A stretch of DNA of 64,000 bases from Candidatus Uhrbacteria bacterium (GTDB lineage Bacteria; Patescibacteriota; Patescibacteriia; UBA9934): the NCBI GenBank assembly GCA_903848275.1, contig CAINGB010000001.1, positions 1,175 through 65,174 of the forward strand, read 5' to 3'. The position numbers and the translations under genes are program-made. The notes below the pieces were generated by a model. The model was not told the origin of the DNA. It worked only from the letters and a program-made list of their open reading frames with translations, and made no database searches. Shown one piece after another: positions 7,951-63,589 of this stretch (the stretch's first letter is position 1; each line of letters starts with the position of its first letter).

Positions 7951-7983
7951 CCTGCCACGTCGGTCGCGACCGACGTGGCCTGC
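7951..7983. repeat. GC-rich perfect palindrome CCACGTCGGTCGCGACCGACGTGG with conserved flanks (copy 1 of 2)
   Basis: 34-nt identity with 53871..53904; core is a 24-bp perfect palindrome; lies in the uvrA–uvrB intergenic region. Confidence 0.8.
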
Positions 7984-12898: not shown

Positions 12899-14464
12899 TC
12901 ACCTAACCGAAATTCTATATAACGCCTCATCTTCGATATTATCGACCAGCTCAATCTTCAAGCCCATCTTTCCTAGCTTATCATCATTTAAATAATTAAG
13001 GTCGACTTCCGGAAACGGAATCCCGAAGTAATACAACGGCGCCAGCTTAACAGCTATCGGCATGGCTGCATACGTCGCCTCACTTCGTAACGGCTGAATT
13101 ACATGTCGTTCTGGCCACAAAAACTTATCAGCTCGGTCCACAACAATAATCGAATCCACCTCGGTCTCCGCCAATATCGTATCCCTCTTCGCTGCACTTG
13201 CCAGCAGAACTTGCCGAGTTTTAAGCAAGCCATCACTACCACCGAAAACCAACGAGCTCGACAATAATGCAACTACCAACAACCCTCCTTTCAGCCGCCA
13301 TCTCAACAACCCTTTAGTCGCAAACAACGTTGCCAACACAAACAGCGGCAACCAATAGCGCAAATGCGAGTCCCCAATTGTAATCGCCGTCGGATCTGGA
13401 TTGTCATTAAACGACCAACTACCGTACAACACGCCCAGCCACGCAGCCAAAATCAACGTGCCAAGCGCCAGCTTGCGCCAGCCTCCTTTTTCGCGCAACG
13501 ACACATAAATCCCAATCGCCGCCAAAATACTCAGCCACCAGAATAAACCAATCCCATAATGCCAAACATTTTTAATGATCGCTTTCGGGTGCACACCAAA
13601 CGGTAACAGCAAATTGATAATCGAACGTTGAATAGGCAGGGTCACCGTCCCCCGCCCCTGTAAATTTTCATGGTCAATTGCCTCCGCGGACACATGACTA
13701 TCAACCACCGTATACCCCGTCGACCACGGTTGCTGATACAAAGCAACATTGAGACTCGCATTCACAGCAATCGGCAAAGCAAAACCGAGCAGCAACATCA
13801 GCCACGGCAATTTACCAGCCACCTCTTTGCGATACGTAATCGAGATCGCCATTACTACTGGCAATATCCAAACTAATTCCGACAAGCGAAAAAACGCCGC
13901 CAAGCCAATGCCCAAGCCAGCCAGCAAAAACTCCAGCCAAGCCTTCTTCAACGGCTTCACCACCACCAACCACACCGCGAAAATAAGAAAGCAAACAAAC
14001 CCCACGTTCGGCATCATCGTGCGGGCCGCGTAATACCAAACCGCTGGCTGCAACGCCAACATCGTCGTCGCCACATAAGCGAATATCTCATTCTTCGTTA
14101 CCTTTTTCACCGTGGCGAACCAAGCGAATAAAGCTAACATCAACAAAATCGGCGTCAATAATCGCAAACCAAAAGTACCAACTAAATGTCCAAACAAACC
14201 AGCTGCAAACGACAAGCCAAGAAAACTCCCCGGCACAATAAACTCGCCCACCGCTAACGCACTCCGCGGGTGCACCAGCCCTCTCAACTGCGCTGTCACG
14301 TCGTCATGGATAGCTAGACTACCAGTCTGCAACATTGAGTTTGCAAACGTATAATTAGCATTCTCATCCGGCGAAGTAAAAGACGCCGACACCCCAACCG
14401 TCAACCATGACGTCGAACAGAAATAAATGACGAGCGCTACAATAATTACAATCTTCTTTCGCAT
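12899..14464 (-). CDS. GT-C fold glycosyltransferase-like polytopic membrane protein (ArnT/PMT-like)
   Basis: More than 10 TM helices; N-terminal loop with DE-containing motif; start moved to MRKKIVIIV to avoid a 139-bp overlap; contains an in-frame REP. Confidence 0.45.
   Translation of the reverse strand: MRKKIVIIVALVIYFCSTSWLTVGVSASFTSPDENANYTFANSMLQTGSLAIHDDVTAQLRGLVHPRSALAVGEFIVPGSFLGLSFAAGLFGHLVGTFGLRLLTPILLMLALFAWFATVKKVTKNEIFAYVATTMLALQPAVWYYAARTMMPNVGFVCFLIFAVWLVVVKPLKKAWLEFLLAGLGIGLAAFFRLSELVWILPVVMAISITYRKEVAGKLPWLMLLLGFALPIAVNASLNVALYQQPWSTGYTVVDSHVSAEAIDHENLQGRGTVTLPIQRSIINLLLPFGVHPKAIIKNVWHYGIGLFWWLSILAAIGIYVSLREKGGWRKLALGTLILAAWLGVLYGSWSFNDNPDPTAITIGDSHLRYWLPLFVLATLFATKGLLRWRLKGGLLVVALLSSSLVFGGSDGLLKTRQVLLASAAKRDTILAETEVDSIIVVDRADKFLWPERHVIQPLRSEATYAAMPIAVKLAPLYYFGIPFPEVDLNYLNDDKLGKMGLKIELVDNIEDEALYRISVR
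13631..13656 (+). repeat. REP hairpin AATAGGCAGGGTCACCGTCCCCCGCC (copy inside a CDS, in-frame)
   Basis: Matches the REPs flanking the RAYT gene at 17190 and 17522; translated as QGRGTVTLPIQ in the minus-strand CDS. Confidence 0.75.
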
Positions 14465-14466
14465 AC

Positions 14467-15045
14467 TTACAAAGAGTAGGTCAAAGCAGCGATCGCGCCA
14501 AGCACCGTCGCCACAACTAACGCCCATTGACCAACCAAGATCAAAACCGGAATCTGCAACAAAATAGCTAACAGCAGTAGCGTCATCGATAACACCTGAA
14601 GACACAGCTTACTCTTTCCCCACAAATTAGCCATCATGACTGCTTTATTAGTTCGCGCCCTCAAGCCCCAAAGAATAAATGGCAAAAGATCGCAACCAAT
14701 CGCTGCAACTACAACAATTGGGTTAAAATAACGTAAAGCAAAAACCAGAATTACCGAACCAATCAGCAGTCTATCAGCCACCGGATCGAAAACAATACCC
14801 CATGGGGTAATTTGCCCACGAACCCGAGCTAAAGAACCATCCAGCATATCTGTCGACGCTGTCAGAATAAATAATGGAACACCGAAAGTTAAATTATTAG
14901 TGCCCAGTAAATAGACCACTACCGGAGTTAATACGAAACGCAAAACAGTCAGGTGATTAGGCCTGATAAAAGCTGGAATAAACGGCAAAACCAACGCTCT
15001 TAGTACGTAATCTTGCGGGAACAATTTTGCTGGGTTACGCGCCAT
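14467..15045 (-). CDS. CDP-alcohol phosphatidyltransferase family protein (PgsA-like)
   Basis: Motif DMLDGSLARVRGQITPWGIVFDPVADR (D-x2-DG-x2-AR...G-x3-D-x3-D). Confidence 0.7.
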   Translation of the reverse strand: MARNPAKLFPQDYVLRALVLPFIPAFIRPNHLTVLRFVLTPVVVYLLGTNNLTFGVPLFILTASTDMLDGSLARVRGQITPWGIVFDPVADRLLIGSVILVFALRYFNPIVVVAAIGCDLLPFILWGLRARTNKAVMMANLWGKSKLCLQVLSMTLLLLAILLQIPVLILVGQWALVVATVLGAIAALTYSL

Positions 15046-15100
15046 ATTCTCCCTAATCCCTGTTACAGCTGCCAAGTCTATGTTATTATCATACCAGATT

Positions 15101-17170
15101 ATGGAAAAAATATTCCTTCGAGCTACAATTGCGCTGAGCTTAGTCACAATTCTCGGCAGCCTACTCTACTACACCCTTCCAGTCACCTGGCTCGGCTTAT
15201 TCCTGATCCTCATCTTTTCTGTCTTGGTCGCCATCCTTCTCCCCTTAAAATCCCCCGAATCAAGTCAACCAAAGCTCAGCTTTGGGCGCAAACCAGAAAT
15301 CACGCTGAGCGCGATAATAATCCTTGCGCTAACCGCCTGGTGGACCGTCGTCTTCCCCATCAGTATCACCACCGCCGTTCGCTCCCCTTGGGGCATTGTT
15401 CCCGTTTTCTCCCTAGCAGCTCTCGCGATCGCAATCTTTAGTTTGATTGTATTAACTTCTTCTAGCCGGGTGACGCGGAGGGAGGCCCCTGCCGGGCGCG
15501 CAGCTTGCGAGCATCTGGCGGGGTCCGCAGTGGCAGGACCCGGCCGTAGAGACGATATAATAACCACCGCTCTCTTTATCATTACTTTATTTTCAGCGAT
15601 CTCCATGGCCGCCGTCATCTACCCAATTGGCTTCGGTTTCGACCCCTTTCTCCATCGCGCTACAGTCGAGCACATCGCTACCTTCGGCACCATTACGCCT
15701 AAGCCGTTGTACTACATCGGCCAATACGCCCTCGAGCTCACCCTGCATCTCATCGGCGGCTTACAACTTATCCTCGTCGATCGTTTCCTCCTCCCTCTTC
15801 TCGCCGCCATTTTACTCACCGGCAGCACTCTCCTCGGTCTTGCATCTTACACTAAAATCAAGTCAAATTTCGTCCTCGCTGGCCTCTTACTCTTTCCCCT
15901 CAGCACCCTCATCTCAACAACTCCCCAAGGCCTAGCCTACGTTTTCTGCGCCAGCGCCATCATGCTTTCCTTCACTTCATCACTCATCCCCGCTGGCCTC
16001 TTAGCCCTCGCCGCCGCTATCACTCACCCTATCGCCGGCATTCCCGCCGTCATCTTCGTCTTCACCTCTTATCTCCTCCGTCGAGCCACAAATCGCACAT
16101 ACCAAAAAATAATCTTGGCCTGCGCTTTCATTCTCAGCACCCTCGCCATCCCCACTCTCTTCGCCCTCCAAGCCGCCAAATCCGGCCTCGCCCTCTCTCT
16201 CAACCTGGCTAACCTTTTTGACCTCTCCCGCTGGCACTCTCTCGGCCTCACCTCATTCTTCAGTAATCACTTTAACACCTGGTACGACGCCCTTTACTTG
16301 GTCATCGATAACCTCTTCCTCATCACCATAATCTTCGCTCTCATCGGCTTCTTTTATCACTTAACATCGAAATCCTTTACATTGGGTGACGCGGGGCAGG
16401 TCCCCTGCGCGGCGCGCAACGCAGTGAGCACCGAGGAGGGTGGCCAAGCGGCAGGACCCAATGAACTCAGGCACCCAAATCTCTTATTACTCTTACTCAC
16501 CTCAAGCGCCATGTTCCTGAGCTTCGTCGTCCTCTCCCTCCTCTTCAACTTCGACTTCCTAATCTCCTACGAACGAAGCGACTACGCCTTACGCTGCCTC
16601 ACTTTAGCGCATATTTTCTTAATCCCTCTAGCCGCCTTAGGCCTCGTCACCATCAATAACTTCTTACAAAAAAAACCACTGGCCCTCCGCCTCACCTTCT
16701 TCGTCCTCCTCACCGTTATCGCTATCGGCAACATTTACGGCGCCTATCCTCGCCACGACAACTACGCTACTAGTGCCGGCTTCAACACCTCGCAGGCCGA
16801 CGTCGACGCAGTGCAAAAAATCGACACTCTGGCGGACGGTCAAGACTACATCGTTCTTGCCAACCAAGCCACTTCTGCCGCCGCTATCAGTCTCTACGGC
16901 TTCAAAAAATATTATCACGACGACATCTTCTACTACCCAATCCCAACTGGCGGCCCGCTCTATCAAAAATATCTAACCATGGTCAACAACACGCCGAGCC
17001 TCGACACTATTCATGAAGCTATGGACTTAGCTGGCGTCAATCTGGCCTACTTCGCCATTAGCGATTATTGGTGGGACGCTAAAAACATTATCTCTCAAAG
17101 CAAACTCCTCACCAACTCATGGTTCACGACTCCCGACGGCTCCGTCACGGTCTTTGAATTCCGCCGCTAA
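15101..17170 (+). CDS. large polytopic membrane protein (envelope/glycosylation-type) carrying two in-frame GC-rich repeat insertions
   Basis: 690 aa, many TM helices plus C-terminal soluble domain; two hydrophilic about 28-aa loops are encoded exactly by repeat copies A and B. Confidence 0.55.
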   Translation: MEKIFLRATIALSLVTILGSLLYYTLPVTWLGLFLILIFSVLVAILLPLKSPESSQPKLSFGRKPEITLSAIIILALTAWWTVVFPISITTAVRSPWGIVPVFSLAALAIAIFSLIVLTSSSRVTRREAPAGRAACEHLAGSAVAGPGRRDDIITTALFIITLFSAISMAAVIYPIGFGFDPFLHRATVEHIATFGTITPKPLYYIGQYALELTLHLIGGLQLILVDRFLLPLLAAILLTGSTLLGLASYTKIKSNFVLAGLLLFPLSTLISTTPQGLAYVFCASAIMLSFTSSLIPAGLLALAAAITHPIAGIPAVIFVFTSYLLRRATNRTYQKIILACAFILSTLAIPTLFALQAAKSGLALSLNLANLFDLSRWHSLGLTSFFSNHFNTWYDALYLVIDNLFLITIIFALIGFFYHLTSKSFTLGDAGQVPCAARNAVSTEEGGQAAGPNELRHPNLLLLLLTSSAMFLSFVVLSLLFNFDFLISYERSDYALRCLTLAHIFLIPLAALGLVTINNFLQKKPLALRLTFFVLLTVIAIGNIYGAYPRHDNYATSAGFNTSQADVDAVQKIDTLADGQDYIVLANQATSAAAISLYGFKKYYHDDIFYYPIPTGGPLYQKYLTMVNNTPSLDTIHEAMDLAGVNLAYFAISDYWWDAKNIISQSKLLTNSWFTTPDGSVTVFEFRR
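15465..15544 (+). repeat. GC-rich element, copy A (GCCGGGTGACGCGGAGGGAGGCCCCTG...GGCAGGACCCGGC), in-frame in a CDS
   Basis: Conserved termini GGGTGACGCG...GGCAGGACCC with inverted flanks; subfamily shared with copy E. Confidence 0.8.
16382..16461 (+). repeat. GC-rich element, copy B, in-frame in a CDS
   Basis: Interior nearly identical to copies C and D (GGTCCCCTGC...GAGGAGGGTGGCCAAGCGGCAGGACCC). Confidence 0.8.
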
Positions 17171-17504
17171 TTAATAATAGTAATTTCTCAATAGGCGGGG
17201 TCACCGTCCCCCGCCGTAATTCCCTTTCTGAAAACCACCGAGCCATAAAACCCTTTACCCCCTTCATATAATCACTAAATGTTTTTGTTCCCTGTGGCCA
17301 GATAATACAATGGAAATGATCGGGCATTACCACGGCTGCAATCAGTAAAACGTTATATTGCTTCGAATAGTATTTCAACTCCTTTATCAGCATCAATGCA
17401 GCTTCTTCGTCTATAAACAATGGCAATCGATTAAACGTAGTGGATGAGATAAAATGTGGCAAATTCAGCTCAGTCCACAAAGCATGAGTTCGTGCAGAAC
17501 GCAT
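17145..17504 (-). CDS. REP-associated tyrosine transposase (RAYT, IS200/IS605 TnpA-like Y1 HUH)
   Basis: HUH motif VMPDHFHCII, N-terminal pattern LPHFISSTTFNRLPLF, Tyr in SDYMKGV; flanked by inverted REP hairpins; ORF 3' end reads through a REP. Confidence 0.7.
   Translation of the reverse strand: MRSARTHALWTELNLPHFISSTTFNRLPLFIDEEAALMLIKELKYYSKQYNVLLIAAVVMPDHFHCIIWPQGTKTFSDYMKGVKGFMARWFSERELRRGTVTPPIEKLLLLISGGIQRP
17190..17215 (+). repeat. REP hairpin AATAGGCGGGGTCACCGTCCCCCGCC (3' flank of RAYT)
   Basis: Stem GGCGGGG/CCCCGCC; seen directly. Confidence 0.8.
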
Positions 17505-17521
17505 AATAGATTATTTATCAT

Positions 17522-17547
17522 GGCGGGGGACGGTGACCCCGCCTATT
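17522..17547 (-). repeat. REP hairpin, inverted copy (5' flank of RAYT)
   Basis: Reverse complement of the 17190 copy, including the AATA flank. Confidence 0.8.
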
Positions 17548-17566
17548 AATTAGCTCAATAACCAAG

Positions 17567-18154
17567 TCAGCTAATCTGCTCAGTTAATTCAGCTATTCGG
17601 CTTTGTGCTAAGCCCGTCCGATGCGCCAACAACTCTACCTCATGATCCGTTAAATGCTTAGCCAGTAATACGTTCGCCTCAGCCAAAGCTGCAAATTCAA
17701 TATCCGTTAAACCAGTAATCGCCGTCACGGGGTACGTCATAGCCGTCAGCTTTGAAACCAATTCATCACCATCAATCAAGCGCAAACCTTTGTGACTCGC
17801 ATAAGCCACAGCCTCCTGACTAAAAACGCTATTTGTCACCACCCAATACTCATCAAAGTGCGGGCAAGCCTGCACATCAGCCCCATCCAGCAAATCAAGA
17901 TAGGTCGCGTACGCCGCCAACACCGTCTGCAACGTCACCAGTTGCCCGTGCTCGGGTAAAAACACCGTTTTAATAGCGTAGGTCTTACAAGTTTGTTGGG
18001 CCACCACGTCGAGGTCATGCGTTGCACAAGCCCCTGGTACAGCTACTCCACATTCAGCCTTGAAACCCTGTTCGTTTAACATCGCAGCCACAAAATGCGT
18101 GAACGCTAAATTCACAACGCCTAGACGCAACAAGGCACGACGTAAATCCTCCAT
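17567..18154 (-). CDS. restriction endonuclease-like (Mrr_cat / PD-(D/E)XK) domain protein
   Basis: D-LDVVAQQTCK pattern and C-terminal RLIDGDEL resemble the Mrr catalytic domain; weak. Confidence 0.4.
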   Translation of the reverse strand: MEDLRRALLRLGVVNLAFTHFVAAMLNEQGFKAECGVAVPGACATHDLDVVAQQTCKTYAIKTVFLPEHGQLVTLQTVLAAYATYLDLLDGADVQACPHFDEYWVVTNSVFSQEAVAYASHKGLRLIDGDELVSKLTAMTYPVTAITGLTDIEFAALAEANVLLAKHLTDHEVELLAHRTGLAQSRIAELTEQIS

Positions 18155-18160
18155 ACGCCT

Positions 18161-19354
18161 CTATTGTACTACAAGTGTGGTCAACAGGTCTCGTCCTTTA
18201 GCTTCCCATTCACTCAAACCAAGCGTCTGCTTTTCTAAAATATAATCCGCCACATACTGGACAGCTGCTACATGGTCAGTAGCATTCAACTCCTTGGCAT
18301 ATTTCTCGACGTAAGCATAATGCAACTCTTCACGCTTAGCATCATCTTCCACCTGTCGCCAAGATTCAGCTTCAATCACCACCGCAAACTCCGAGCCACC
18401 GTCATCCAACGCCTTTTGCAAATAGGCCACCAATTCTTCTTGCACGTCACTAATGGTCCGGCCAGACAAATCATCCTTAGACAATCGACCCTTCAACTTC
18501 GCTAATAACGCCGCCACCTGCGCATCCGAATTAGCAAAATCAAGATGCAAATCCTGCGTTACATAAAATGGCTTCATGTCGTAAGTAATCTTTTCCGGAT
18601 GAGCGTTAATATCCGCCGCCACCAAACCCTCATACAACGCCCGAGCTGTACCAAAACTCATCTTCGTGTCTACAAAACTATACAGTAAATATTGCAGAGC
18701 TGCTGGTACATGAGCTGACGGCCCACCAAACTTACGCAACACATCCACAATAAACACCGCTTGGTTTTGACTCCGTTGTGGGTCACCAATCGCATAGCTC
18801 TGCCGATGACGCAACCATTGTAGAGACGACGTCGTCGGCAAACCCAAAACTCGAAGCGAACCCAGTACCTGCGAGAAACCAGCCGTCACCACATAGTCAG
18901 CTTTGACGCCTAAAATATGCTCAATCTGAGCAATGCCGTAATCCAAACCAGCAAACGCACAGGCATTGGCCAAGTAATAATCGGTCGGCAAATAATTGCC
19001 CGGTGGAATATAGCTATAAGTACCACGCGGCACGCTCGTCACTTTTACCGTCCAATCTTTCACGTTGATCGCAAACAAATGAATAGCGTCGCAATGCTGC
19101 TCCTTGCCCTCTTTTCGTGAATCAATACCGAGCACCAGCACATTCACCACATTCTCATCACCAAAAGGTGCTGCGTCCGTCTCAAGCGTTGTCGCTGCTC
19201 GTTCTGCCAAAACTGTCTGCACCACATCAGCAATTTGTGGCACCGGAGCAGCAATCTCCTCAGCCTGGGTATGGAAAATTATCACTACTACCACGCACAC
19301 CACCACAAAACTCGTAACCACTCCTAGCAACAACCGTAAGCGAAAGCGGGACAT
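18161..19354 (-). CDS. LytR-CpsA-Psr (LCP) family cell-envelope phosphotransferase
   Basis: N-terminal TM anchor; LCP motifs VLVLGIDSR...HCDAIHLF. Confidence 0.8.
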   Translation of the reverse strand: MSRFRLRLLLGVVTSFVVVCVVVVIIFHTQAEEIAAPVPQIADVVQTVLAERAATTLETDAAPFGDENVVNVLVLGIDSRKEGKEQHCDAIHLFAINVKDWTVKVTSVPRGTYSYIPPGNYLPTDYYLANACAFAGLDYGIAQIEHILGVKADYVVTAGFSQVLGSLRVLGLPTTSSLQWLRHRQSYAIGDPQRSQNQAVFIVDVLRKFGGPSAHVPAALQYLLYSFVDTKMSFGTARALYEGLVAADINAHPEKITYDMKPFYVTQDLHLDFANSDAQVAALLAKLKGRLSKDDLSGRTISDVQEELVAYLQKALDDGGSEFAVVIEAESWRQVEDDAKREELHYAYVEKYAKELNATDHVAAVQYVADYILEKQTLGLSEWEAKGRDLLTTLVVQ

Positions 19355-25455: not shown

Positions 25456-25605
25456 CCCAAAAGACCAAGTAGCGAGGGGCAGGCCTAACATCCTTTAGTC
25501 GGGTGACGCGAGCCAGGTCCCCTGCTGGGCGCGGAACGCCTAGTGAGCACCCAGGAGGGTGGCCAAGCGGCAGGACCCGACGAACCTTCGCACCCCAAGC
25601 CTTGG
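25456..25605 (+). repeat. GC-rich element, copy C, extended 150-nt form
   Basis: Near-identical over about 150 nt to 29166..29316; core 25498..25581. Confidence 0.85.
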
Positions 25606-29165: not shown

Positions 29166-29316
29166 CCCAAAAGGCCAAGTAGCGAGGGGCAGGCCTAACC
29201 TCTTGTAGTCGGGTGACGCGAGCCAGGTCCCCTGCTGGGCGCGGAACGCCTAGTGAGCACCCAGGAGGGTGGCCAAGCGGCAGGACCCGAAGAACTTTCG
29301 CACCCCAAGCCTTGGT
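29166..29316 (+). repeat. GC-rich element, copy D, extended 150-nt form
   Basis: Near-identical to copy C; spurious ORFs 29149..29415 and 29213..29434 derive from it. Confidence 0.85.
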
Positions 29317-34935: not shown

Positions 34936-36156
34936 ATGAGTAAGATTGATCAATTGATTAGTGAATTATGCCCAGAGGGAGTGGAGTTTAAAACGATAGG
35001 AGAATTTGTTGAATTTGCAAAAGGAGCAAGTATTCCTCGAGCCAGAACCTCGGTTGATTATGAAGTTCCGTACCTACATTACGGCGATGTCTACAAGTTG
35101 TATAAAAAAGAGGTCGATCTTGATGTTGTTTATAATTCAATCATTAAGGTCTCATCACATGAGAGAGTTCGCGAAAATCAATATATTCAGACGGGAGATA
35201 TCGTTTATAACCTAACCTCAGAAACGAAAGAGGATTTGGGTAAGGCTATCGTGGTTATCAATAATAGCGGACGGAAATTTATTGCAGGAACCGAAACAAC
35301 TGTAATGAAAATTACACGGAAGGATCTTGTCGATCCATGTTTTTTGAACTATGTGTTGATGACGGAGTGGTATTTGCAGGAGTTCAGACAACATACAACT
35401 GGCACCAAAGTCTACCGTGTTCATCCCCGTGCCATTGCAAAAATCTCGATCCCTCTTCCGCCACTTGTGATTCAAAGAGAGATCGTTAACATTCTTGATA
35501 GGTTCACAGAGCTGGAGACAGAGCTGGAGACAGAGCTGGAGACAGAGCTGGAGACAAGAATGATGCAATACGACTACTATCGTTCAGAGGTTCTGACATC
35601 ATCTGATTCAGAGAGAGCGATATCTGACGTCTGTGGGATTAGTAGAGGAAGAGTGATGTCGAGGGATTATCTCAGAGCGAACGTGGGCGAATATCCGGTT
35701 TATTCTTCGCAAACTGCCAACGATGGAATTTTCGGATACATCGATACTTACGATTACGAAGGTGAATACGTAACCTGGACAACAGACGGAGCGAACGCAG
35801 GATCAATTTTTTACCGCAATGGAAAATTTAGTATCACGAATGTCTGCGGGCTCTTAAAAGTTACCGCTGATGATGTTAATGCAAAATTTCTCACGTATAT
35901 CCTCGGTACTGTTTCAAAAAAATATGTTAGTGCGGGCATGGGAAACCCGAAGCTGATGAGCAACGTTATGGCTAATATCAAGGTGCGAATTCCCACCTTG
36001 ATCGAACAAGAGCGTATCGTAACCTTACTCGACAAATTCGATACCCTAGTGAACGATATCTCCATTGGTCTCCCAGCTGAACTCGCGGCACGTCGAAAAC
36101 AGTATGAGTACTATCGGAGCAAGCTCCTGACTTTCAAAGAATATGCCAAAAGCTAA
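34936..36156 (+). CDS. hsdS: type I R-M specificity subunit HsdS (two target-recognition domains, repeat-bearing central region)
   Basis: Position in hsdM-S-R; overlapping stop/start; conserved central and C-terminal helices; (ELET)4 repeat. Confidence 0.8.
   Translation: MSKIDQLISELCPEGVEFKTIGEFVEFAKGASIPRARTSVDYEVPYLHYGDVYKLYKKEVDLDVVYNSIIKVSSHERVRENQYIQTGDIVYNLTSETKEDLGKAIVVINNSGRKFIAGTETTVMKITRKDLVDPCFLNYVLMTEWYLQEFRQHTTGTKVYRVHPRAIAKISIPLPPLVIQREIVNILDRFTELETELETELETELETRMMQYDYYRSEVLTSSDSERAISDVCGISRGRVMSRDYLRANVGEYPVYSSQTANDGIFGYIDTYDYEGEYVTWTTDGANAGSIFYRNGKFSITNVCGLLKVTADDVNAKFLTYILGTVSKKYVSAGMGNPKLMSNVMANIKVRIPTLIEQERIVTLLDKFDTLVNDISIGLPAELAARRKQYEYYRSKLLTFKEYAKS
35509..35556 (+). 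repeat. 4 x 12-bp perfect tandem repeat GAGCTGGAGACA inside hsdS, encoding (ELET)4
   Basis: Seen directly. Confidence 0.95.
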
Positions 36157-53870: not shown

Positions 53871-53904
53871 CCTGCCACGTCGGTCGCGACCGACGTGGCC
53901 TGCC
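53871..53904. repeat. GC-rich perfect palindrome element (copy 2 of 2)
   Basis: 34-nt identity with 7951..7983. Confidence 0.8.
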
Positions 53905-55498: not shown

Positions 55499-56506
55499 CT
55501 AACCTCTCCCCAAAAACTCCACTAACGCCACCTCATGTTTGCGCAGATGAGGAAACTTTTTCATCGAACTCAACTTCGGTTCTCGCCAGCTAAATCTCTG
55601 CTCAATATAACAAGTAATAACATCCGGGTGAATATAACTCCGTCTACACACCGCGCTCGTATTGCCGAGCGCCTCCGCCGCCTTACTTATAGCCTCTTTT
55701 ATATTTCGTTGTAATTCTTTTTTATTTCCCGGCGTCGACGTTTTCCACAAATGCTCCGCCACAATCACGGTGCCGTGCCACGTCCGGAAGTCCTTGGCCG
55801 TCACCTCCCTTTTGGCTATCTCTTGCAAATACTCGTTCACGTCCGTGGATTTGATGTCATGCACGGCGTCATTATCATCCACATACTCAAACAACTCATG
55901 CCCAGGAATATCCTGGCACGCCGCCACCACTTGCCGTAATCGTGCATCATGCAGCGGCACTTCATGCACAATTCCCTCCTTGCCCTTAAAAACGAGCCTC
56001 ATTTTCTCACCCGTCCCTTTAACGTGCCTATTCTCCAGCGTCGTCAAACCATAAGTCCCATTCTCTTCCGCATACTCATCGTTACCAATCCTCACATATT
56101 CATCATCGAGTAGCTTCACAATCGCCGCCAACACTTTTTCCTTATTCATTTCAGCCGACGCAAAATCCCGCGCCACAATCCGCCGTATCGGTGACAACGA
56201 CTTGGCAAAATCCACCAGTCGATGAAACTTCTTCTCATCCTGCTTAGCCGTCCAGTCAACATGATAAATATATTGTTTGCGGCCTTTACTATCACATCCC
56301 GTCGCTTGCAAATGTCCATTCGGCAACGCACAAATCCAAACATCTGTATACGCCGGCGGAATCGCCAACGCCTTAATTCTCGCCAGTGTTTCCCTGTCTT
56401 TCACCTTTTTCCCAGCCGCATCCACATACCAAAAAAACCCCAACCTCTTCCGTCGAGTAATCCCTGGCTGCTCATCGGTCACATAAATAAGCTTCATCAA
56501 GCCCAT
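55499..56506 (-). CDS. DNA topoisomerase IB (bacterial/poxvirus type)
   Basis: Motif TAKDFRTWHGT; active-site Tyr region SAVCRRSYIHP; 335 aa. Confidence 0.8.
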   Translation of the reverse strand: MGLMKLIYVTDEQPGITRRKRLGFFWYVDAAGKKVKDRETLARIKALAIPPAYTDVWICALPNGHLQATGCDSKGRKQYIYHVDWTAKQDEKKFHRLVDFAKSLSPIRRIVARDFASAEMNKEKVLAAIVKLLDDEYVRIGNDEYAEENGTYGLTTLENRHVKGTGEKMRLVFKGKEGIVHEVPLHDARLRQVVAACQDIPGHELFEYVDDNDAVHDIKSTDVNEYLQEIAKREVTAKDFRTWHGTVIVAEHLWKTSTPGNKKELQRNIKEAISKAAEALGNTSAVCRRSYIHPDVITCYIEQRFSWREPKLSSMKKFPHLRKHEVALVEFLGRG

Positions 56507-56546
56507 TATATCATGTTATACTTTCTCTAGTTTTAATCTACTGAAT

Positions 56547-56990
56547 ATGTTCGGACTCAAACGCTCCGCTGTCAAAATTAAAGCCTGGCTCAGTCACCGT
56601 CCAATACTCTATGCTTTAATCGGCGGTATCGGCGTTGTCCTCTTTTGGCGCGGCGTCTGGCACACCGTGGATTACCTCATGCTGCTCACTCAACATTCTA
56701 TCGCCCACACTTCTATCGACTTAACCACCAATCTCTGGTGGGACGGTCCGTTATCACTCGTTGTCGGATCTTTCATCCTCCTCAGTACCAGCGCCTTTGT
56801 CTTCAGCCTCATTGGTAACGAAATAATTATCTCTGGCTTACAAGCTGAAAAACGTCAACTTGCTAAAACCGGCAGCATCATGCACAGCGAATCACAGGAA
56901 ATAGATGAGCTCCGCCAGGCTTTTGCTAATATTTCATCCAAGCTCGAACATCTGGAGCGTGATGTCAACAAGAGCAATAACAAAAAATAA
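56547..56990 (+). CDS. membrane protein with C-terminal coiled coil
   Basis: 2–3 TM then charged helical tail. Confidence 0.4.
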   Translation: MFGLKRSAVKIKAWLSHRPILYALIGGIGVVLFWRGVWHTVDYLMLLTQHSIAHTSIDLTTNLWWDGPLSLVVGSFILLSTSAFVFSLIGNEIIISGLQAEKRQLAKTGSIMHSESQEIDELRQAFANISSKLEHLERDVNKSNNKK

Positions 56991-56991
56991 T

Positions 56992-57396
56992 ATGACTCAT
57001 ATCCCCTCCTTCCACACTAACATCATCCAAGCTGTCACTACTAACGAATATTTCAGGCGCGTGCTTTTTACCGGGGCAAAATCACAACTCGTTGTCATGA
57101 ACATTCCCCCGGGCGGTGAAGTCGGCCAAGAAACTCACCAGCACGTCGAGCAAACACTGTACTTCGAATCTGGTACCGGTCAGGCTATTCTCGACGGCCT
57201 ATCAACACCTATCGTGCCTGGCGACGTCGTGGTTGTTACCCCTGGCACGCAACATAACTTTCTTAATACCGGCACAACTCCACTCAAAATTTTCACCACC
57301 TATTCACCACCAAATCACCTCGACGGTCGCATTCAAGCCACTAAAGCCGACGCCGACGCGGACCGAGCCGACGAAAACTTCGGCGAGGCTCAGTAA
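56992..57396 (+). CDS. cupin-domain protein
   Basis: Cupin motifs GGEVGQETHQHVEQTLY and PGTQHNFLNTG; start at MTHIPSF just after the previous stop. Confidence 0.65.
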   Translation: MTHIPSFHTNIIQAVTTNEYFRRVLFTGAKSQLVVMNIPPGGEVGQETHQHVEQTLYFESGTGQAILDGLSTPIVPGDVVVVTPGTQHNFLNTGTTPLKIFTTYSPPNHLDGRIQATKADADADRADENFGEAQ

Positions 57397-57442
57397 AAAA
57401 TATGGTACACTTAAGGTAGTTAATTTTATTTCTACCTTGAGT

Positions 57443-59947
57443 ATGTCCAACCCACACTATCTAGCTAAAGTTTTTCGCACAATTGCCGCAACGGCCTTCG
57501 TCATCATCGGCGGGGCCTTTTGCTTCTCAGTGAACACACCTCACGCTTTAGCTGCTCTTGGCGACGGAGCTACCAGTGCAATCCACCTTCTTGATAGTGG
57601 CGAAGACGGCAAGCCGGATACCATTACCTTCAGCATCGCCAACCCGAACGGCGAAAGCTGGGCCGCTGTTGGTTCCTCGCCGTATGGCGTTAGTGTCACT
57701 CAAAATGGTGCCGCTATCACCGTAACTGGTGTCACTCGTACCTCGGGCGCCACCGCCAACCCAATCACCATCTCCGTTGCCCTCGATACTTCAGATTCCG
57801 ATCTTCAGTATAATACCGACGGTGTCGTCCTTTACCCCATTGAATTAATTTACACTCGTGTTGGTGGTGGGGTCGCTTGCACTAACTGCCTTCGCGACAA
57901 CGTCGATGAAGAAATGAACGCAATAGCCACCGGCGACACCAACGCCACCAACACAGAAGTAGACCTCATGAAGCCCGTCGTCATGACTATGTACGAAAAC
58001 GCGGCCTATACCCGCAACCTGACTTTTAATACTGTTGATATAGAATACTCAGAGCGCATGCATCTTTCATTGGATAACGACGGCGGAACAGATGTCTCTT
58101 ACGACGGCACAGCGACTGGAACTTCGACAGCTACGGCCGGTTCTATGACAGTCGCTCGTACTATTGCCGGTTTTGGCACTTGGGCTGCGCTGAACGGTGG
58201 CGACATGGCTATTTCCACCGTTGGTGGCAACGAAATAATCGCCTATCAAAATGCTTTTATTATCGTCATGAACGAAGTGGATAGTTCTTATTTCTCAGCT
58301 GGCAGCACTGCCCCAACTACCCCTGTTTTCACCCCCTCATATTCACCACTCACCGTCTTTGATGCTGCTGGCAATGGCGTCTCCACTAATACCAAAACCA
58401 TGTTCGAAAACGTCCCTTGGGACGTCACTGCGCCGACACTCGACAACACCTATTCTTGCTATAGCACCGTCAACGGTAAGGTAAATCGCGTTCAATTGTC
58501 CTTCAACGAAAATATTGACGACTACACTTTCGACACCAGCGTTTTCGAAGTGGACAACGATAGTACCAACAACGGTATCGGCGAGGAGACTCCCGTCTCT
58601 TTCAACACTGCCACCGCTGGTTGCGACGGCACGGCCGACGACACCGACTACGACGACGAAAAAATCCGCCTAGATCTCACCACCGGTATCACTGGCACCG
58701 ACAAGGCCTACGTGCACTATGCGGCTAATGGCAGCTACCATATACGTGATGGGGCTGGTAACCTCATGCTCGCCGGTTCCGCTCTCGGCACGGAAAATGA
58801 TCGAGCCGCGCCAATTGTTATGTCTACCACCCCAACTGCAGGCAGCAACATTCTCAACACCAGCCCGATCGTCCTCAACTTCAGCGAAGCGATGGACTCC
58901 ACTGCCGGTCACTTCGTCTACACTTTCCCAGGTGAACCAACTCTCACTCCAGTCTGGACTTCTGGCGACACCGTCCTCACTCTTAACGGTACCAAAATTC
59001 ACGGCAGTAAAACATTAACCGTCACAGCTGGTCCTGACGCAGCCGCTCAAGCTTTTGGTACTTTCCTCGCGACTAGCAACGCCTCGTTCAGCTTCACGGT
59101 TCTCGGTGGCTCCAACACTACTGCCACTCCAGCTGTAATCACCTACGCTCTCACCCTCACCTCCCCAACTGCTAGTTTTTCCTATCAAGCTGGTACTAAC
59201 ATTCCGATCACCTGGACCAGCAATCAAACCAATAGCACCGCTATGACTGCTATTAATCTCGCCTACTCAACAGACTCTGGCTTAACCTTCACCACTATCG
59301 CCAACAACGAAGTCAATGACGGCAGCTACACCTGGACGGCACCAAACATTAGTTCCAACAACGTCACTCTCAAAATCACCGGCACCGATCTCGTCACCAC
59401 CCTCGCTACCAACACCGGAGCCGCTTTCACCATCTCCTCCAGCGCATCTACACCAAACTCTGACACCACAGTTCCTGTCGCGCCAACTCTAGCCGCTGGC
59501 AGCTTCGTCAAAAGCTCAGCCAACAGCGCCGTCTACTACATCACCGCCGACGGTCATCGCCTCCCCTTTATCAACGAACAGGTCTACGCCACTTACGCCA
59601 GCGATTTTAGTAGCGTCGCCACTCTCACAGATATCGACCTCTCCGCCTACCCACTCGGTGCTCCAGTCGCGCCTAAACCAGGTACCGTGCTCGTCAAAAT
59701 CCAATCCACGGCCAACACCTATGCCGTGACCGGCACACCAGAGGCATCAGTTCTCCGCCTTATTACGAGCGAAGAACTTGCCGCCAGTCTCTACGGCAGT
59801 AACTGGGCCGACTACGTCATTGATCTCCCACCAACCATGTGGCCACATTTGACCATCGGCACCCAACTCGCCAACACCAGCGACTTAATCGTCGACCGTT
59901 CCACCCTCCTCCGCCGCGTTGATCTTTTTCTCACTATCCTCAGCTAA
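57443..59947 (+). CDS. large secreted Thr/Ser/Asn/Ala-rich surface protein (Ig-like repeats)
   Basis: Signal peptide MSNPHYLAKVFRTIAATAFVIIGGAFCFSVNTPHALA; low-complexity beta-rich repeats. Confidence 0.6.
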   Translation: MSNPHYLAKVFRTIAATAFVIIGGAFCFSVNTPHALAALGDGATSAIHLLDSGEDGKPDTITFSIANPNGESWAAVGSSPYGVSVTQNGAAITVTGVTRTSGATANPITISVALDTSDSDLQYNTDGVVLYPIELIYTRVGGGVACTNCLRDNVDEEMNAIATGDTNATNTEVDLMKPVVMTMYENAAYTRNLTFNTVDIEYSERMHLSLDNDGGTDVSYDGTATGTSTATAGSMTVARTIAGFGTWAALNGGDMAISTVGGNEIIAYQNAFIIVMNEVDSSYFSAGSTAPTTPVFTPSYSPLTVFDAAGNGVSTNTKTMFENVPWDVTAPTLDNTYSCYSTVNGKVNRVQLSFNENIDDYTFDTSVFEVDNDSTNNGIGEETPVSFNTATAGCDGTADDTDYDDEKIRLDLTTGITGTDKAYVHYAANGSYHIRDGAGNLMLAGSALGTENDRAAPIVMSTTPTAGSNILNTSPIVLNFSEAMDSTAGHFVYTFPGEPTLTPVWTSGDTVLTLNGTKIHGSKTLTVTAGPDAAAQAFGTFLATSNASFSFTVLGGSNTTATPAVITYALTLTSPTASFSYQAGTNIPITWTSNQTNSTAMTAINLAYSTDSGLTFTTIANNEVNDGSYTWTAPNISSNNVTLKITGTDLVTTLATNTGAAFTISSSASTPNSDTTVPVAPTLAAGSFVKSSANSAVYYITADGHRLPFINEQVYATYASDFSSVATLTDIDLSAYPLGAPVAPKPGTVLVKIQSTANTYAVTGTPEASVLRLITSEELAASLYGSNWADYVIDLPPTMWPHLTIGTQLANTSDLIVDRSTLLRRVDLFLTILS

Positions 59948-59996
59948 CATTCGTTAGTTCTCATTCAATCATCGCACCAATCTAGGCCCTACGTCA

Positions 59997-60090
59997 CAGC
60001 GGGTGGCGGCGAGCAGGTGCCCTGCGGGTCGCGACGTTGCAGCCTCTGCAGCTAGCGACTCGGAGGGTGCGAGCCAGACAGGACCCGCTG
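59997..60090 (+). repeat. GC-rich element, divergent copy F
   Basis: Ends CAGCGGGTG...GGACCCGCTG; same orientation as the other copies. Confidence 0.6.
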
Positions 60091-60114
60091 CCAGCAGAAA
60101 TTAATACCAATCTT

Positions 60115-60375
60115 ATGTTTAGTACCAACAGCCAAGATTATAGCGATCTCAATCGTCTTCCCGCTATCCTCCCCTTCATCTTCCTTATCATCATCCTCCT
60201 CGCCCTCTGGAGCATCTTCTGGAAAGGCCTCGCCCTCTGGCACGCCGCCCGTCACGGCCAGGGTTGGTGGTTCGGCCTTCTCCTCATTCTCAACACCGCC
60301 GGCATCTTGGAAATCATCTATCTCTTCGCTGTGCTAAAACTTAAGTTTTCCGAACTTTTCAGTAAAAAGAAATAA
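60115..60375 (+). CDS. small membrane protein
   Basis: Two TM helices; start at MFSTNSQ (the upstream part of ORF 60037 is the repeat). Confidence 0.4.
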   Translation: MFSTNSQDYSDLNRLPAILPFIFLIIILLALWSIFWKGLALWHAARHGQGWWFGLLLILNTAGILEIIYLFAVLKLKFSELFSKKK

Positions 60376-60410
60376 CACAACGAATCATTTAGTGGTAGAA
60401 TGTCTGCAAT

Positions 60411-62228
60411 ATGACTTCTATCCTTACCGAGCCAAAACGCGACTACATCCTACTCATTCTCATCGCCTTAACATTCGGTGCAGATTTACTTTTACACGAA
60501 CCGCTCACGCTCTTCATCATCGCAGGCGTTGCTGTCATTCCAACTTTCTGGAACTCTGCCCTCGCCGCTCGTCACGGCAAAATCACTATCGACACTTTCA
60601 ACACCTTCGCCGTCATCGTTTCTTTTGCGACTGGCGAGGCTTACTCTGCTGGGTTCATCGCCCTCATGTTGACGTCCGCCCGCATTCTCGACTGGTACAC
60701 CGAGTCACGCACTCATCATGCTATTGAAGAGTTACTCCGCCTCAAACCAACCACCGCTTTCCTCGAGCAAGGCCAAATTGTAACCGAGGTCGATGCTGAC
60801 ACCATCAAAACCGGCGACGTGGTGCTCGTCAAAAGTGGTGCTCGAATTCCTGTCGACGGCGTTGTCACCGACGGTTCAGCCCACGTCAACGAGGCTATCG
60901 TCACTGGCGAGTCAGAACCAATCGAGAAGAATGTCGGCGATCGTGTGATTAGCTCAACCCTAGTCGACATTGGTGTCCTGCATGTCAGAGCCACCCAAGT
61001 CGGCAAAGACTCCACCCTCGAGCGCATGGCCACCCTCATGCATACGGCCAGCTTACACAAATCCACTACCGAAAAATTAGCGGATCGTTTTGCTACCATC
61101 TTCTTACCCGTCGTCGGCCTCCTTGGTGCTCTCACCTACGCCATTACCCGCGATCTCACCATGACCGCCGCCCTCTTCCTCATTGCCTGTGCCGACGATA
61201 TGGCCGTCGCCATTCCTCTCGCCATGACCGCCTCACTCGGCCAAGCTGCCAAACGTGGTGTCATCGTTAAAGGCGGACAAACCCTCGACGCCTTAAGCCG
61301 CATGAAAACGCTTGTCCTCGACAAAACCGGCACGCTCACCTTCGGCAACCTAGCAATTCGTGCCGTCCATCTGGCGCCCAACGTCGACGAGAATCATTTC
61401 TGGACAGTCCTCGCCAGCGCCGAAAAATATTCGGAACACCCAGCCGGTCGTACCGCCTACAAAGAAGGCTTACGTCGACTGGGCACTGTGGCTGACCCCA
61501 CCGATTTTAAACTCTACAAGGGCAAAGGTGTGACTGCGCAAGTTGGCACCGAAACCATCGTTGCCGGCACTGAGCTGCTCTTCGCCGAACTCGGACTCCC
61601 CATCCCTACCGTACCCGAAGACGCCCTCGGCTCCGTCTTTTGGGTAGCTTGCAACGGCCAACACATTGGCTCTCTTGAAGTCGCCGACATTCCGCGTCCC
61701 GAAGCCGCCGCTAGCCTAGCTAAACTTCGCACTCTCGGCGTCACGCGCATCATCATGCTAACCGGTGATAACGAACGCGTCGCTAAAAACGTCGCTGAAT
61801 TACTCGGCATCACCGAATTCCGTTCTCGCATGACGCCAGAAGGTAAAATGCTCGCCCTGGAAGAGCTTTTTGCTACCGGTCCTGTCGGCATGGTCGGCGA
61901 CGGCGTAAATGACGCTCCAGCCTTAGCCCGCGCTGATATTGGCATTGCTATGGGCGGTGGTGGTGCCGCCGTTTCCGTGGAAGCTGCTGACGTCGTCATC
62001 ATGACCGACAACCTCGCACGTTTGCCGGAAATGATGGAACTCGGCCGCAGCACACTAAGCGTCGTTAAAGGCGACATTGTCATCTGGGTCATCTCAAATC
62101 TTGTCGGTTTCACCCTTGTTTTCACTGGAATCGCCGGTCCTGCTCTAGCCGCCTTCTACAACTTCGCCACCGACTTCTTTCCACTCTTCAACTCCAGCCG
62201 CCTCTTTAAAACAAAACGAGGGCCTTAA
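60411..62228 (+). CDS. cation-transporting P-type ATPase (short form)
   Basis: TGES, DKTGTLT, GDGVNDAPAL motifs. Confidence 0.85.
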   Translation: MTSILTEPKRDYILLILIALTFGADLLLHEPLTLFIIAGVAVIPTFWNSALAARHGKITIDTFNTFAVIVSFATGEAYSAGFIALMLTSARILDWYTESRTHHAIEELLRLKPTTAFLEQGQIVTEVDADTIKTGDVVLVKSGARIPVDGVVTDGSAHVNEAIVTGESEPIEKNVGDRVISSTLVDIGVLHVRATQVGKDSTLERMATLMHTASLHKSTTEKLADRFATIFLPVVGLLGALTYAITRDLTMTAALFLIACADDMAVAIPLAMTASLGQAAKRGVIVKGGQTLDALSRMKTLVLDKTGTLTFGNLAIRAVHLAPNVDENHFWTVLASAEKYSEHPAGRTAYKEGLRRLGTVADPTDFKLYKGKGVTAQVGTETIVAGTELLFAELGLPIPTVPEDALGSVFWVACNGQHIGSLEVADIPRPEAAASLAKLRTLGVTRIIMLTGDNERVAKNVAELLGITEFRSRMTPEGKMLALEELFATGPVGMVGDGVNDAPALARADIGIAMGGGGAAVSVEAADVVIMTDNLARLPEMMELGRSTLSVVKGDIVIWVISNLVGFTLVFTGIAGPALAAFYNFATDFFPLFNSSRLFKTKRGP

Positions 62229-62243
62229 AATAAACTTCTTTTA

Positions 62244-62324
62244 GTCGGGTGACGCGGAGGGAGGCCCCTGGGCGGCGCGCAGCTTGCGAGCACCGAACGG
62301 GGTCCGCAGTCGGCAGGACCCGAC
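62244..62324 (+). repeat. GC-rich element, copy E
   Basis: GTCGGGTGACGCGGAGGGAGGCCCCTG...GGCAGGACCCGAC; closest to copy A. Confidence 0.8.
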
Positions 62325-62369
62325 GAAGTCTTTTACTCTAATGCCCGAGTCTAAAACATTGATCAATTT

Positions 62370-63269
62370 ATGTCCCAAGTCCTCTTCATCGGCGCTGGCA
62401 AAATCGGCACTGCCCTAGCCCACGTCATCAATGACCGTGCTGCCATCGATCTCTGGGATCAAGACCCAACTCAGGCTCCCAACATGAAGCCTTTGGTCGA
62501 GAGTGTCCCTTTAGCTGACGTCATTTTTCTTTGCACTCCTTCCTGGACCATCCGCGCTATCATCGAGCAAATAATACCATTCTTACGCCCTATTACAGTT
62601 ATAGTTCTGTTAGCCAAAGGTCTTGAAGCAGAAACACAAAACACCATGGACACTGTGCTCGCCAATCTCCTGCCTGCCGTTCAACCGTGGGGCCTTCTCG
62701 GCGGTCCGCTATTAGCCGACGAACTAACCGACGAGTTGCCAAGCATTGGCGTTTTTGCTTCTGCTTCACGTCCAACATATCTCGAAATAAATAAACTTTT
62801 CCTAGGTACCAACGTCCGCCTCGAATACAGCACCGATCCTCACACCATCGCTCTCGCCGCCGTCCTTAAAAATATCTATGCCGTTATTCTCGGTCTCGCC
62901 GCGGGCCTCGGTTGGGGCTACAACGGCCAAGGCTGGTTGGCAGCTCGTGCGCTCACCGAAATAACCAACATCATCCAACAGCTTAATGGCGACGCAATTC
63001 TCGTAGCTGGCTCAGCTGGTGCTGGTGATTTTCTCGCCACCGCCATGAGTCCAGACTCTCACAACCGCACCGCCGGCATCGAGATCGCTAAAACGGGTCG
63101 CTGCATCACTACCAATGAAGGCTGTCGTTCTCTCCCACCTATCATCGCTCTACTCAACAATCAGCTCGATCAATTTCCACTCTTGTTCGCTCTCGATCAA
63201 ATCGTCAATCAACACGCCGCCGCAGCAGCCATTTTCCATGGTTTATTAATAGCACCTGAAATAAAATAA
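62370..63269 (+). CDS. gpsA: NAD(P)H-dependent glycerol-3-phosphate dehydrogenase
   Basis: FIGAGKIGTALA Rossmann, AKGLEAET, AAVLKNIYAVILG, GDFLATAMSPDSHNRTAG. Confidence 0.7.
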   Translation: MSQVLFIGAGKIGTALAHVINDRAAIDLWDQDPTQAPNMKPLVESVPLADVIFLCTPSWTIRAIIEQIIPFLRPITVIVLLAKGLEAETQNTMDTVLANLLPAVQPWGLLGGPLLADELTDELPSIGVFASASRPTYLEINKLFLGTNVRLEYSTDPHTIALAAVLKNIYAVILGLAAGLGWGYNGQGWLAARALTEITNIIQQLNGDAILVAGSAGAGDFLATAMSPDSHNRTAGIEIAKTGRCITTNEGCRSLPPIIALLNNQLDQFPLLFALDQIVNQHAAAAAIFHGLLIAPEIK

Positions 63270-63313
63270 AATTTGCTGTATACTGCAAACATTATTCATC
63301 TTAAATTACTCTT

Positions 63314-63583
63314 ATGAAGAACGGTCTTAACGCTAACAGTGTCGGCTTAGTCTTCGGCGGTGTCCTGGCTTTCTGGCATCTCGTCTGGTCACTCATGGTG
63401 GCCTTTGGTGTCGCCAACATGTATCTGACCTGGATTCTCAACCTGCATCGTATTAACATTACTATCAGCGTTCTTCCCTTCTCTCTCCCTATCGCTATTA
63501 CTTTAATCTTGGTCACTGGCGTCATTGGCTACATTGTCGGCTATATCTTTGCCCTCATCTGGAACGCCGTCAGCAAGAAATAA
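63314..63583 (+). CDS. small membrane protein
   Basis: Three TM helices. Confidence 0.4.
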   Translation: MKNGLNANSVGLVFGGVLAFWHLVWSLMVAFGVANMYLTWILNLHRINITISVLPFSLPIAITLILVTGVIGYIVGYIFALIWNAVSKK

Positions 63584-63589
63584 CTAGCT

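Follow-up and report, generated by a model that had tools for sequence, protein, structure and literature searches.

The locus described here raises the question of whether a transposase gene lying between two identical, oppositely oriented hairpins is a working system and, if it is not, how it came to lie where it does. The gene sits in a 64,000-nucleotide stretch of contig CAINGB010000001.1 from a Candidatus Uhrbacteria bacterium, hereafter the window (64 kb), and encodes a REP-associated tyrosine transposase (RAYT) beside copies of a 26-nt repetitive extragenic palindromic (REP) sequence. RAYTs are regarded as domesticated, immobile, single-copy transposases. The in vivo route by which they move REPs, or the paired REPs known as REPINs, is to our knowledge still unproven. 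The original prediction, made from the sequence alone, saw in this locus the canonical architecture of a REPtron, a RAYT gene with its flanking REPs. That picture did not hold up, as the gene is cut at residue 105 of about 160-190 and appears to be a secondary insertion away from the usual locus of its relatives. With moderate confidence, we read the element as a dead, REP-bounded half-REPtron in a Candidatus Uhrbacteria-type (Patescibacteria) genome, which came about either by moving in one piece or by a deletion from REP to REP.

The open reading frame (ORF) occupies positions 17145..17504 of the minus strand and encodes 119 amino acids (aa), including AAVVMPDHFHCIIW. Its HUH motif, VMPDHFHCII within VVMPDHFHCIIW, lies in strand beta3, with the HUH codons at nt 17310-17318. 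The protein matches Pfam Y1_Tnp with an E-value of 4.5e-8 and 33.7 bits (gathering cut-off 23 bits) over profile positions 14-83 of 121, and the NCBIfam model REP_Tyr_transpos (NF047646) with 52.2 bits over positions 11-88 of 146. The latter score is below the curated whole-protein cut-off of 80 bits, and both matches are confined to the N-terminal 60% of the profiles. The RAYT model nevertheless fits the protein better than the IS200 transposase model does, on which it scores 17.7 bits; scores on the latter model range from 18 to 25 bits across the RAYT family here, against a cut-off of 55 bits. Full-length relatives (P0002-P0007, 161-194 aa) reach 92-106 bits on REP_Tyr_transpos and extend to position 145 of 146. 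The AlphaFold2 model of P0002 (pLDDT 84.5, pTM 0.81) found 4er8_A as its best Foldseek match (E 9e-10, TM 0.69, identity 24%). The window protein is a member of the RAYT/TnpA_REP branch of the Y1 HUH transposases, and the predicted HUH motif and RAYT-type protein were both recovered.

What this member lacks is its catalytic half. Profiles, tblastn and alignment place a RAYT gene remnant at codons 1-105 (17190..17504, minus strand), which by the P0002 model comprise beta1-alpha1-beta2-beta3(HUH)-alpha2 and a REP-coded loop. The rest of the ORF (17145..17189, minus strand) is a non-homologous read-through tail of 14 codons and a stop, starting where similarity is lost, directly after ...CCTATT; its bases 17145-17170 overlap the 3' end of a convergent gene of 696 aa. 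In the protein alignment, the window sequence tracks its relatives to ...RRGTVTPPI (residue 105) and then departs, the IWQDSFFDY and YIxxNPVE blocks being absent. With full-length homologs as queries, tblastn aligned residues 1-105 to 17504..17190 and nothing past it; for three of the four full-length relatives the match ended at nt 17190, the last base of the REP, and for the fourth at 17211. In the DNA alignment with the closest relative (L001, 73% aa identity), similarity is gone directly after ...CCGCCTATT. The ORF does read through the REP, as predicted, with 17190-17215 forming codons 97-105 before 14 further codons. The C-terminus, which the original prediction had called uncertain, is not uncertain but absent, as homology stops at residue 105.

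A profile search of the PDB equated the missing part with residues 90-140 of E. coli TnpA_REP (4ER8), Y115 included, and a Y115F mutant of the E. coli enzyme is catalytically dead (PMC8266576). In the P0002 model, the beta1-alpha1-beta2-beta3(HUH)-alpha2 core is followed by a low-confidence loop (98-110), strand beta4 (111-119) and the tyrosine helix (123-139), and the REP-coded residues 98-105 sit in the low-confidence alpha2-beta4 loop. The window gene is a fragment consisting of the N-terminal half and the loop, without strand beta4 (IWQ..FFDY) and without the catalytic tyrosine helix (YIxxNP; E. coli Y115). Because a core strand and the catalytic helix are missing, the protein should be unable to serve as an active transposase, and the encoded 119 aa are predicted not to cleave DNA. 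The same truncated allele is present on 7 contigs from several samples (ERZ18648719, ERZ27313441 and ERR4194641 among them), all identical, and is therefore not an assembly artefact. In the 64-kb window, tblastn detected no relic of the C-terminal coding part, no second RAYT and no ribonucleotide reductase (RNR) gene.

A canonical functional REPtron, with an active RAYT now generating and spreading REPs, would agree with the HUH motif, the RAYT-family match and the identical inverted REPs on both sides. It does not agree with the loss of strand beta4 and the tyrosine helix or with a score of 52 bits against a cut-off of 80. Moreover, one of the two "flanks" is intragenic sequence, only 3 REP copies occur in the window, and no second ORF there supplies the tyrosine helix in trans. 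We rejected this reading on account of the missing catalytic half and give it almost no credence.

The hairpins themselves were found as predicted. The 26-mer, AATAGGCGGGGTCACCGTCCCCCGCC, occurs without mismatches at 17190-17215 (plus strand) and 17522-17547 (minus strand), and with 1 mismatch at 13631-13656 (plus strand) within a coding sequence (CDS), whereas 100 shuffles gave 0 matches. In each copy, a stem of 7 G/C base pairs closes a loop of 8 nt (-9 kcal/mol, z -2.7 to -3.8), and the inverted arms of the window unit extend to 31 nt with 94% complementarity. The copy at 17190..17215 (5'-AATAG followed by stem and loop) now forms the distal end of the unit. The copy at 17522..17547, inverted relative to it, precedes the ATG by 17 nt (18 with the 25-nt pattern of the scan), and this upstream geometry is the same in three other loci (L126, L127 and L207). 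A looser scan of the 64-kb window found no REP copies beyond these three. An Rfam search of 13000-18500 returned no match, and therefore no known RNA family accounts for the hairpins.

The REP at which the gene breaks off is part of the reading frame throughout the clade, which is Candidatus Uhrbacteria-type. An intragenic REP stands at the same ORF position in all eight loci examined (the window, L001, L123, L125, L126, L127, L207 and L208). On the gene strand, 17190-17215 codes for RRGTVTPPI, and the peptide xRGxVxPPI is kept in full-length relatives. What had been taken for a 3' flanking REP is thus the intragenic REP of the clade, coding the conserved RG-x-V-x-PP-I. In the typical layout, an inverted REP precedes the ATG by 14-19 nt, a direct copy occupies the alpha2-beta4 loop, and a further direct copy follows the stop codon at a distance between a few and about 100 nt. 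Four loci have this last copy, and in three of them the distance is 2-8 nt. The intragenic REP is usually closer to the flanking REPs of its own locus than to those of other loci: mismatches to the nearest flanking copy of the same locus number 0, 2, 0, 0, 1, 3 and 0, compared with typically 3-8 between loci (0 and 2 for two closely related pairs). The REP loop sequences are also locus-specific (GACGGTGA, CATGGTAA, CGCAGTGG, GATGGGAC and TGCAGGGA). In L127 and L208, a comparable hairpin is read in another frame (EAGCRDSAY), and in L207, L123 and L208 a second inverted copy follows 50-60 nt downstream, in frame, giving a REPIN-like doublet within the gene. The intragenic REP is a DNA-level feature. 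A RAYT clade in bacteria of the candidate phyla radiation (CPR) keeps its cognate REP in its own frame, usually matching the copies outside; in a literature search, which was not exhaustive, no account came up of a REP conserved midway through a RAYT ORF.

More distant relatives differ in this loop. Most of 80 distant metagenome RAYTs have a short "LGRxGPVWQ" linker, and the relatives on metagenome contigs are mostly distant canonical RAYTs (25-39% identity) without a loop REP, which were used as an outgroup only. The Uhrbacteria relative L109 (= P0133) also has a short linker, and two tandem REPs are read as its C-terminal tail instead. A scan of 1.84 billion representatives retrieved 11,969 relatives. 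No more than 11 clusters had an E-value below 1e-30, and the majority of these carry REP-type peptides in the same loop (e.g. RRGAGTPPI, GRGPQTPPR or IGGVPRPR three times). Among the top 150 relatives, the loop is expanded in 58 of 105 parseable sequences, with internally repeated peptides in many. This suggests arrays of short DNA repeats within the transposase ORF across a wide lineage, and because so many relatives bear expanded loops with peptide repeats, the alpha2-beta4 loop is a hot spot at which short repeats generally gather in this lineage of RAYTs. In P0134, P0136, P0157, P0158, P0169, P0179, P0226 and others, this loop holds 2-4 tandem short peptides, such as SRRQEPPLL three times or SWFADISQPPSAG four times.

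How the fragment reached its present position can be approached from genomes in which the site is empty. The gene order of the window (LytR-like, Mrr_cat-like, the RAYT fragment, the 696-aa membrane protein, a CDP-OH transferase and PMT_2) is kept in GCA_964355955.1 (L210), SRR22388344 (L213) and Candidatus Uhrbacteria GCA_003518105.1 (L214/L215). In all three, the Mrr_cat-like gene and the membrane-protein gene (660-698 aa) are convergent, their ends overlap by about 4-23 nt, and neither a RAYT nor a REP lies between them. Because the stop codons of the neighbours overlap at this empty site in three relatives, the 396-bp block at 17171..17566 is an insertion relative to them, made of a 358-bp REP-to-REP unit with 19 nt on either side. 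These linkers (17171-17189 and 17548-17566) are exactly 19 nt each of unrelated A+T-rich sequence between REP and neighbouring stop, and inspection of the alignment revealed no symmetry or conservation in them. Outside them lie the 696-aa membrane-protein gene (15080..17170, plus strand; delimited by the ORF list and orthologue alignment) and the Mrr_cat-like gene of 195 aa (17567..18154, minus strand), the last 2-3 codons of which differ from its orthologues. The usual address of this clade is different. The RAYT gene lies directly downstream of a class II RNR gene in L001, L123 and L125, a CobA-type neighbour is common to L123 and L126, and the usual locus, RNR-RAYT(-CobA), is represented by L001, L123, L125 and L126. 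Judging from these gene orders, the window copy lies off the RNR-side locus. The locus provides a pair of filled and empty sites, the filled one holding part of a RAYT gene that came to a new position with REPs at its ends.

Two routes could have produced this arrangement. In the first, the upstream inverted REP and the intragenic REP would together form a REPIN-like unit whose 306-nt spacer is RAYT coding sequence. This half-REPtron would have been copied to the new site in one step by an intact RAYT working in trans; we favour this route by a small margin and put its chances just short of even. In the second, a whole REPtron (inverted REP, RAYT and direct REP) would have landed first and then lost about 200 bp between its direct REPs, whether by replication slippage, by recombination or by an IS608-type excision by the RAYT, the last being conceivable since both hairpins lie on one strand. 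Short direct repeats are classic substrates for deletion. In the full-length loci, the intragenic and 3' REPs are direct, about 200-280 bp apart and nearly identical (0 mismatches in L123), and the end-point of the deletion is exactly at the edge of the REP. The two-step route nonetheless needs two events where one suffices, a full-length allele occupies the site on none of the 7 contigs, and the window retains no relic of the C-terminal coding part. We regard it as quite possible, if somewhat less probable than not.

Several points weigh against the reading of the element as a half-REPtron that moved or was cut down by its REPs. No intact close RAYT (>73% identity) was found for this organism in the protein database, so that a trans-acting donor or master copy is hypothetical. 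The insertion does not run exactly from REP to REP but includes the 19 unrelated nt outside each of them. Known REPIN spacers measure tens of nt, not 306, and the half-REPtron unit occurs only once in the window. The promoter scan found no promoter-like site before the ORF, and no clear ribosome-binding site is visible there. Finally, the one-step and two-step routes yield the same final sequence, and the data cannot separate them.

The state of the fragment bears on its age. It keeps all clade-invariant N-terminal residues in the protein alignment. An estimate of dN/dS was attempted, with dS saturated, and branch lengths in dN alone were used: the branch of the window fragment (0.11) is not accelerated relative to those of two intact relatives (0.09 and 0.12). 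Because of this, a recent event is suggested, and the truncation is probably recent or the fragment still constrained. The latter case would fit a truncated protein kept as a REP-binding factor without nuclease activity, either an inhibitor or regulator of RAYT or a binder of hairpins, by analogy with the truncated transposase inhibitors that exist in other elements. The ORF is intact, the invariant residues are retained, the dN branch is unaccelerated and the allele is fixed in several samples, all as such a role would have it. However, a recent truncation would leave the same signals, stable folding is doubtful in the structural model since a core beta-strand of the sheet is missing, and, as mentioned above, neither a promoter-like site nor a clear ribosome-binding site was found before the ORF. 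The window cluster is also the sole truncated one in the clade besides one C-terminal fragment. We therefore hold a retained binding function to be improbable. The C-terminal fragment, P0151 (90 aa), begins exactly at the REP-coded residues (MGPPPIG...) and comprises the catalytic half only. It mirrors the window fragment, and may stem from the splitting of a gene at the REP or be an artefact of a contig edge.

The 26-mer is not confined to the three sites in the window, as the identical sequence recurs in the sister genome GCA_964355955.1. There, 15 blocks of 8 kb contain at least 27 copies, counting the exact 26-mer and its loop variants, which is a lower bound rather than a genome-wide count, from a scan that also drew many unrelated hairpins. 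Of 30 copies examined, 16 lie within long open frames, where they are read as xIGGVTxPR(Q/P) or xRGTVTPPI; 14 of these are among the 27 of the sister genome and 2 among the 3 of the window. Two copies stand in RNR gene linkers that an orthologue lacks. A REPIN-like doublet with 50-60-nt spacing is also found in a CDS of L114. The tag at the 5' foot is ATAG, not GTAG, in essentially all copies of the family; the last two tag positions weigh most for cleavage in tested systems (PMC8266576), and T2, A3 and G4 are retained here. Taken together, the hairpin appears to be a genuine dispersed REP-type repeat tied to this RAYT family. Three intergenic REPs of the sister genome (L022 2204-2229, L048 3138-3163 and L102 5158-5183) share longer flanks, ...ccgagccttggc.gt.gagc... 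[REP] ag...actc.cgcaaagacg..., and therefore some REPs are embedded in a larger repeated element. The sister genome (L001/L210, CAYHFQ01) is titled "uncultured Gammaproteobacteria bacterium" as a metagenome-assembled genome; this label looks wrong because its proteins are 82-85% identical to, and its gene order common with, the window and Candidatus Uhrbacteria genomes.

This distribution also bears on another account, in which the two convergent genes simply end in intrinsic terminators of the ordinary kind, formed by the hairpins, and an IS200-like pseudogene lies beside them by coincidence. Each hairpin does lie 19 nt past a stop codon, and one of them, the REP at 17522-17547 on the plus strand, scores terminator-like, with the hairpin followed by TATTAATT. 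Yet the two copies are identical over 26 of 26 nt, the sequence also occurs in CDSs and in the RAYT ORF of 8 loci, and the sister genome holds the many further copies counted above. In addition, the orthologous gene pairs need no such hairpins, and for the transcript of each gene the T-rich-tailed hairpin lies at the far side of the insert. The terminator-only reading was rejected on the distribution of the repeat and seems to us very unlikely indeed. As parts of a dead half-REPtron, the hairpins may still act as stem-loops 19 nt past the stop of each convergent gene, and they may remain substrates of a RAYT if an intact one exists elsewhere in the genome.

The third copy of the window (13631..13656, plus strand) lies inside a PMT_2-type CDS of 568 aa (12899..14605, minus strand), in which it is read as GRGTVTLPIQ, and its mismatch weakens the stem. 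The site measures 42 nt in the window against 30 nt in close PMT orthologues (+12 nt, +4 aa), which show a faint GGCG...CCCGCC similarity there, whereas there is almost no length difference from a homolog of 38% identity. The copy may stem from an insertion or from gene conversion, and a clean insertion cannot be separated from the latter by these alignments.

One could also imagine that the REP within the RAYT ORF is not a tolerated passenger but a working part of the system, through which the enzyme copies or disables its own gene as a self-limiting switch. The 5' half of the gene, lying between the upstream inverted REP and the intragenic REP, would then be a REPIN-like cassette open to mobilisation, and the catalytic C-terminal half, lying between the intragenic REP and the 3' direct REP, could be excised. 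We think this unlikely, although if it were true, the window element would be a natural reaction product caught next to its empty site, and the enzyme, acting in cis, would have left its footprint in the expanded, repeat-filled loop that more than half of the parseable relatives have. With or without such a switch, the half-REPtron and its full-length relatives offer concrete substrates for the question of whether RAYTs mobilise or excise DNA between two REPs, and may account for the inactivation of a RAYT gene by its own repeats.

The window carries other repeats. A second, G+C-rich family of 80-110 nt with an outer CGGGT...GGACCCG stem has copies at 15454-15531, 16370-16479, 25487-25598, 29197-29308, 59987-60035 and 62233-62341, and one in the sister genome (L048 2487-2579). 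Two of these copies are in frame in the gene for the 696-aa membrane protein; the first adds 26 aa that the L210 orthologue does not have, and the second is present in both. The original prediction had raised a possible common core between the 26-mer and the "~80-nt element", and none was found; the fold z-scores of the latter are not significant. A 26-nt perfect palindrome, GCCACGTCGGTCGCGACCGACGTGGC, occurs at 1576-1608, 7951-7983 and 53871-53903, two of the copies being identical over 33 nt. All three lie within long open frames and contain CGTC, and the family may be of the CGTC-tagged type. At 35506-35565, ACAGAGCTGGAG is repeated in tandem about 4 times with a unit of 12 nt. GC skew is strongly negative (-0.2 to -0.3) over most of 1-31000 and 56000-64000 and near zero from about 32 to 54 kb.

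Among the closest known systems is the E. coli REPtron. TnpA_REP (4ER8) shares the Y1 HUH fold and is the top profile and structure match for the full-length relatives, and both systems combine a short G/C hairpin bearing a conserved 5' tetranucleotide with inverted REPs around the gene, although in the window one of the two is the intragenic copy. The tag is, however, ATAG here and GTAG in E. coli, the stem is perfect here and bulged in E. coli, and this clade has a REP within the ORF at a point that in E. coli is bridged by some 2 linker residues. The window copy, unlike the E. coli gene, is without its catalytic half. Measured against the general description of REPs, the 26-mer is a G/C-rich stem-loop palindrome within the 20-40 nt range of these imperfect palindromes, but it departs from them in its tag and in its location, which is often not extragenic.

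Another system to compare is the IS200/IS605 family (IS608, ISDra2). Common to both are the Y1 HUH fold, hairpins near the ends that are recognised in single-stranded form, and a guide tetranucleotide on the 5' side of the hairpin. In contrast to these elements, the proteins here fall far short of the IS200 cut-off, the ends are in inverted and not in direct orientation, and no TnpB is present. The gene of the relatives occupies one conserved locus among the loci examined, and the window holds no second copy.

In Pseudomonas, inverted REP pairs constitute the presumed mobile unit of the REPIN-RAYT system (Bertels and Rainey; PMC3116915, PMC5581495), in which the RAYT usually has a conserved, vertically inherited locus; in the relatives studied here, it likewise tends to lie beside RNR. 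The in-ORF doublets of this clade, about 50-60 nt apart, resemble REPINs. The window unit differs from a REPIN, which is a multi-copy doublet with a short spacer, in that its RAYT-coding spacer of 306 nt (296 nt between the 31-nt arms) was seen once, and the system differs in that its REPs are often intragenic and that it is found in a CPR bacterium, with only about 1 Mb of genome.

REPs have been documented within genes and also where they overlap the end of a RAYT gene (Di Nocera et al. 2013, PMC3733652). Together with the Rickettsia palindromic elements (PMC3733652), intragenic REPs share with the present family the in-frame occurrence of short palindromes in protein genes, including genes of DNA metabolism, here the RNR linkers. 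Unlike those elements, the REP described here lies in the middle of the RAYT ORF, is conserved across the clade and usually matches the flanking copies, and about half of the sister-genome copies examined (14 of 27) are intragenic. Our literature search, not an exhaustive one, found no paper on REP-RAYT systems in CPR bacteria. The present locus extends these systems, with their frequent in-frame intragenic REPs, to the roughly 1-Mb genomes of Patescibacteria.

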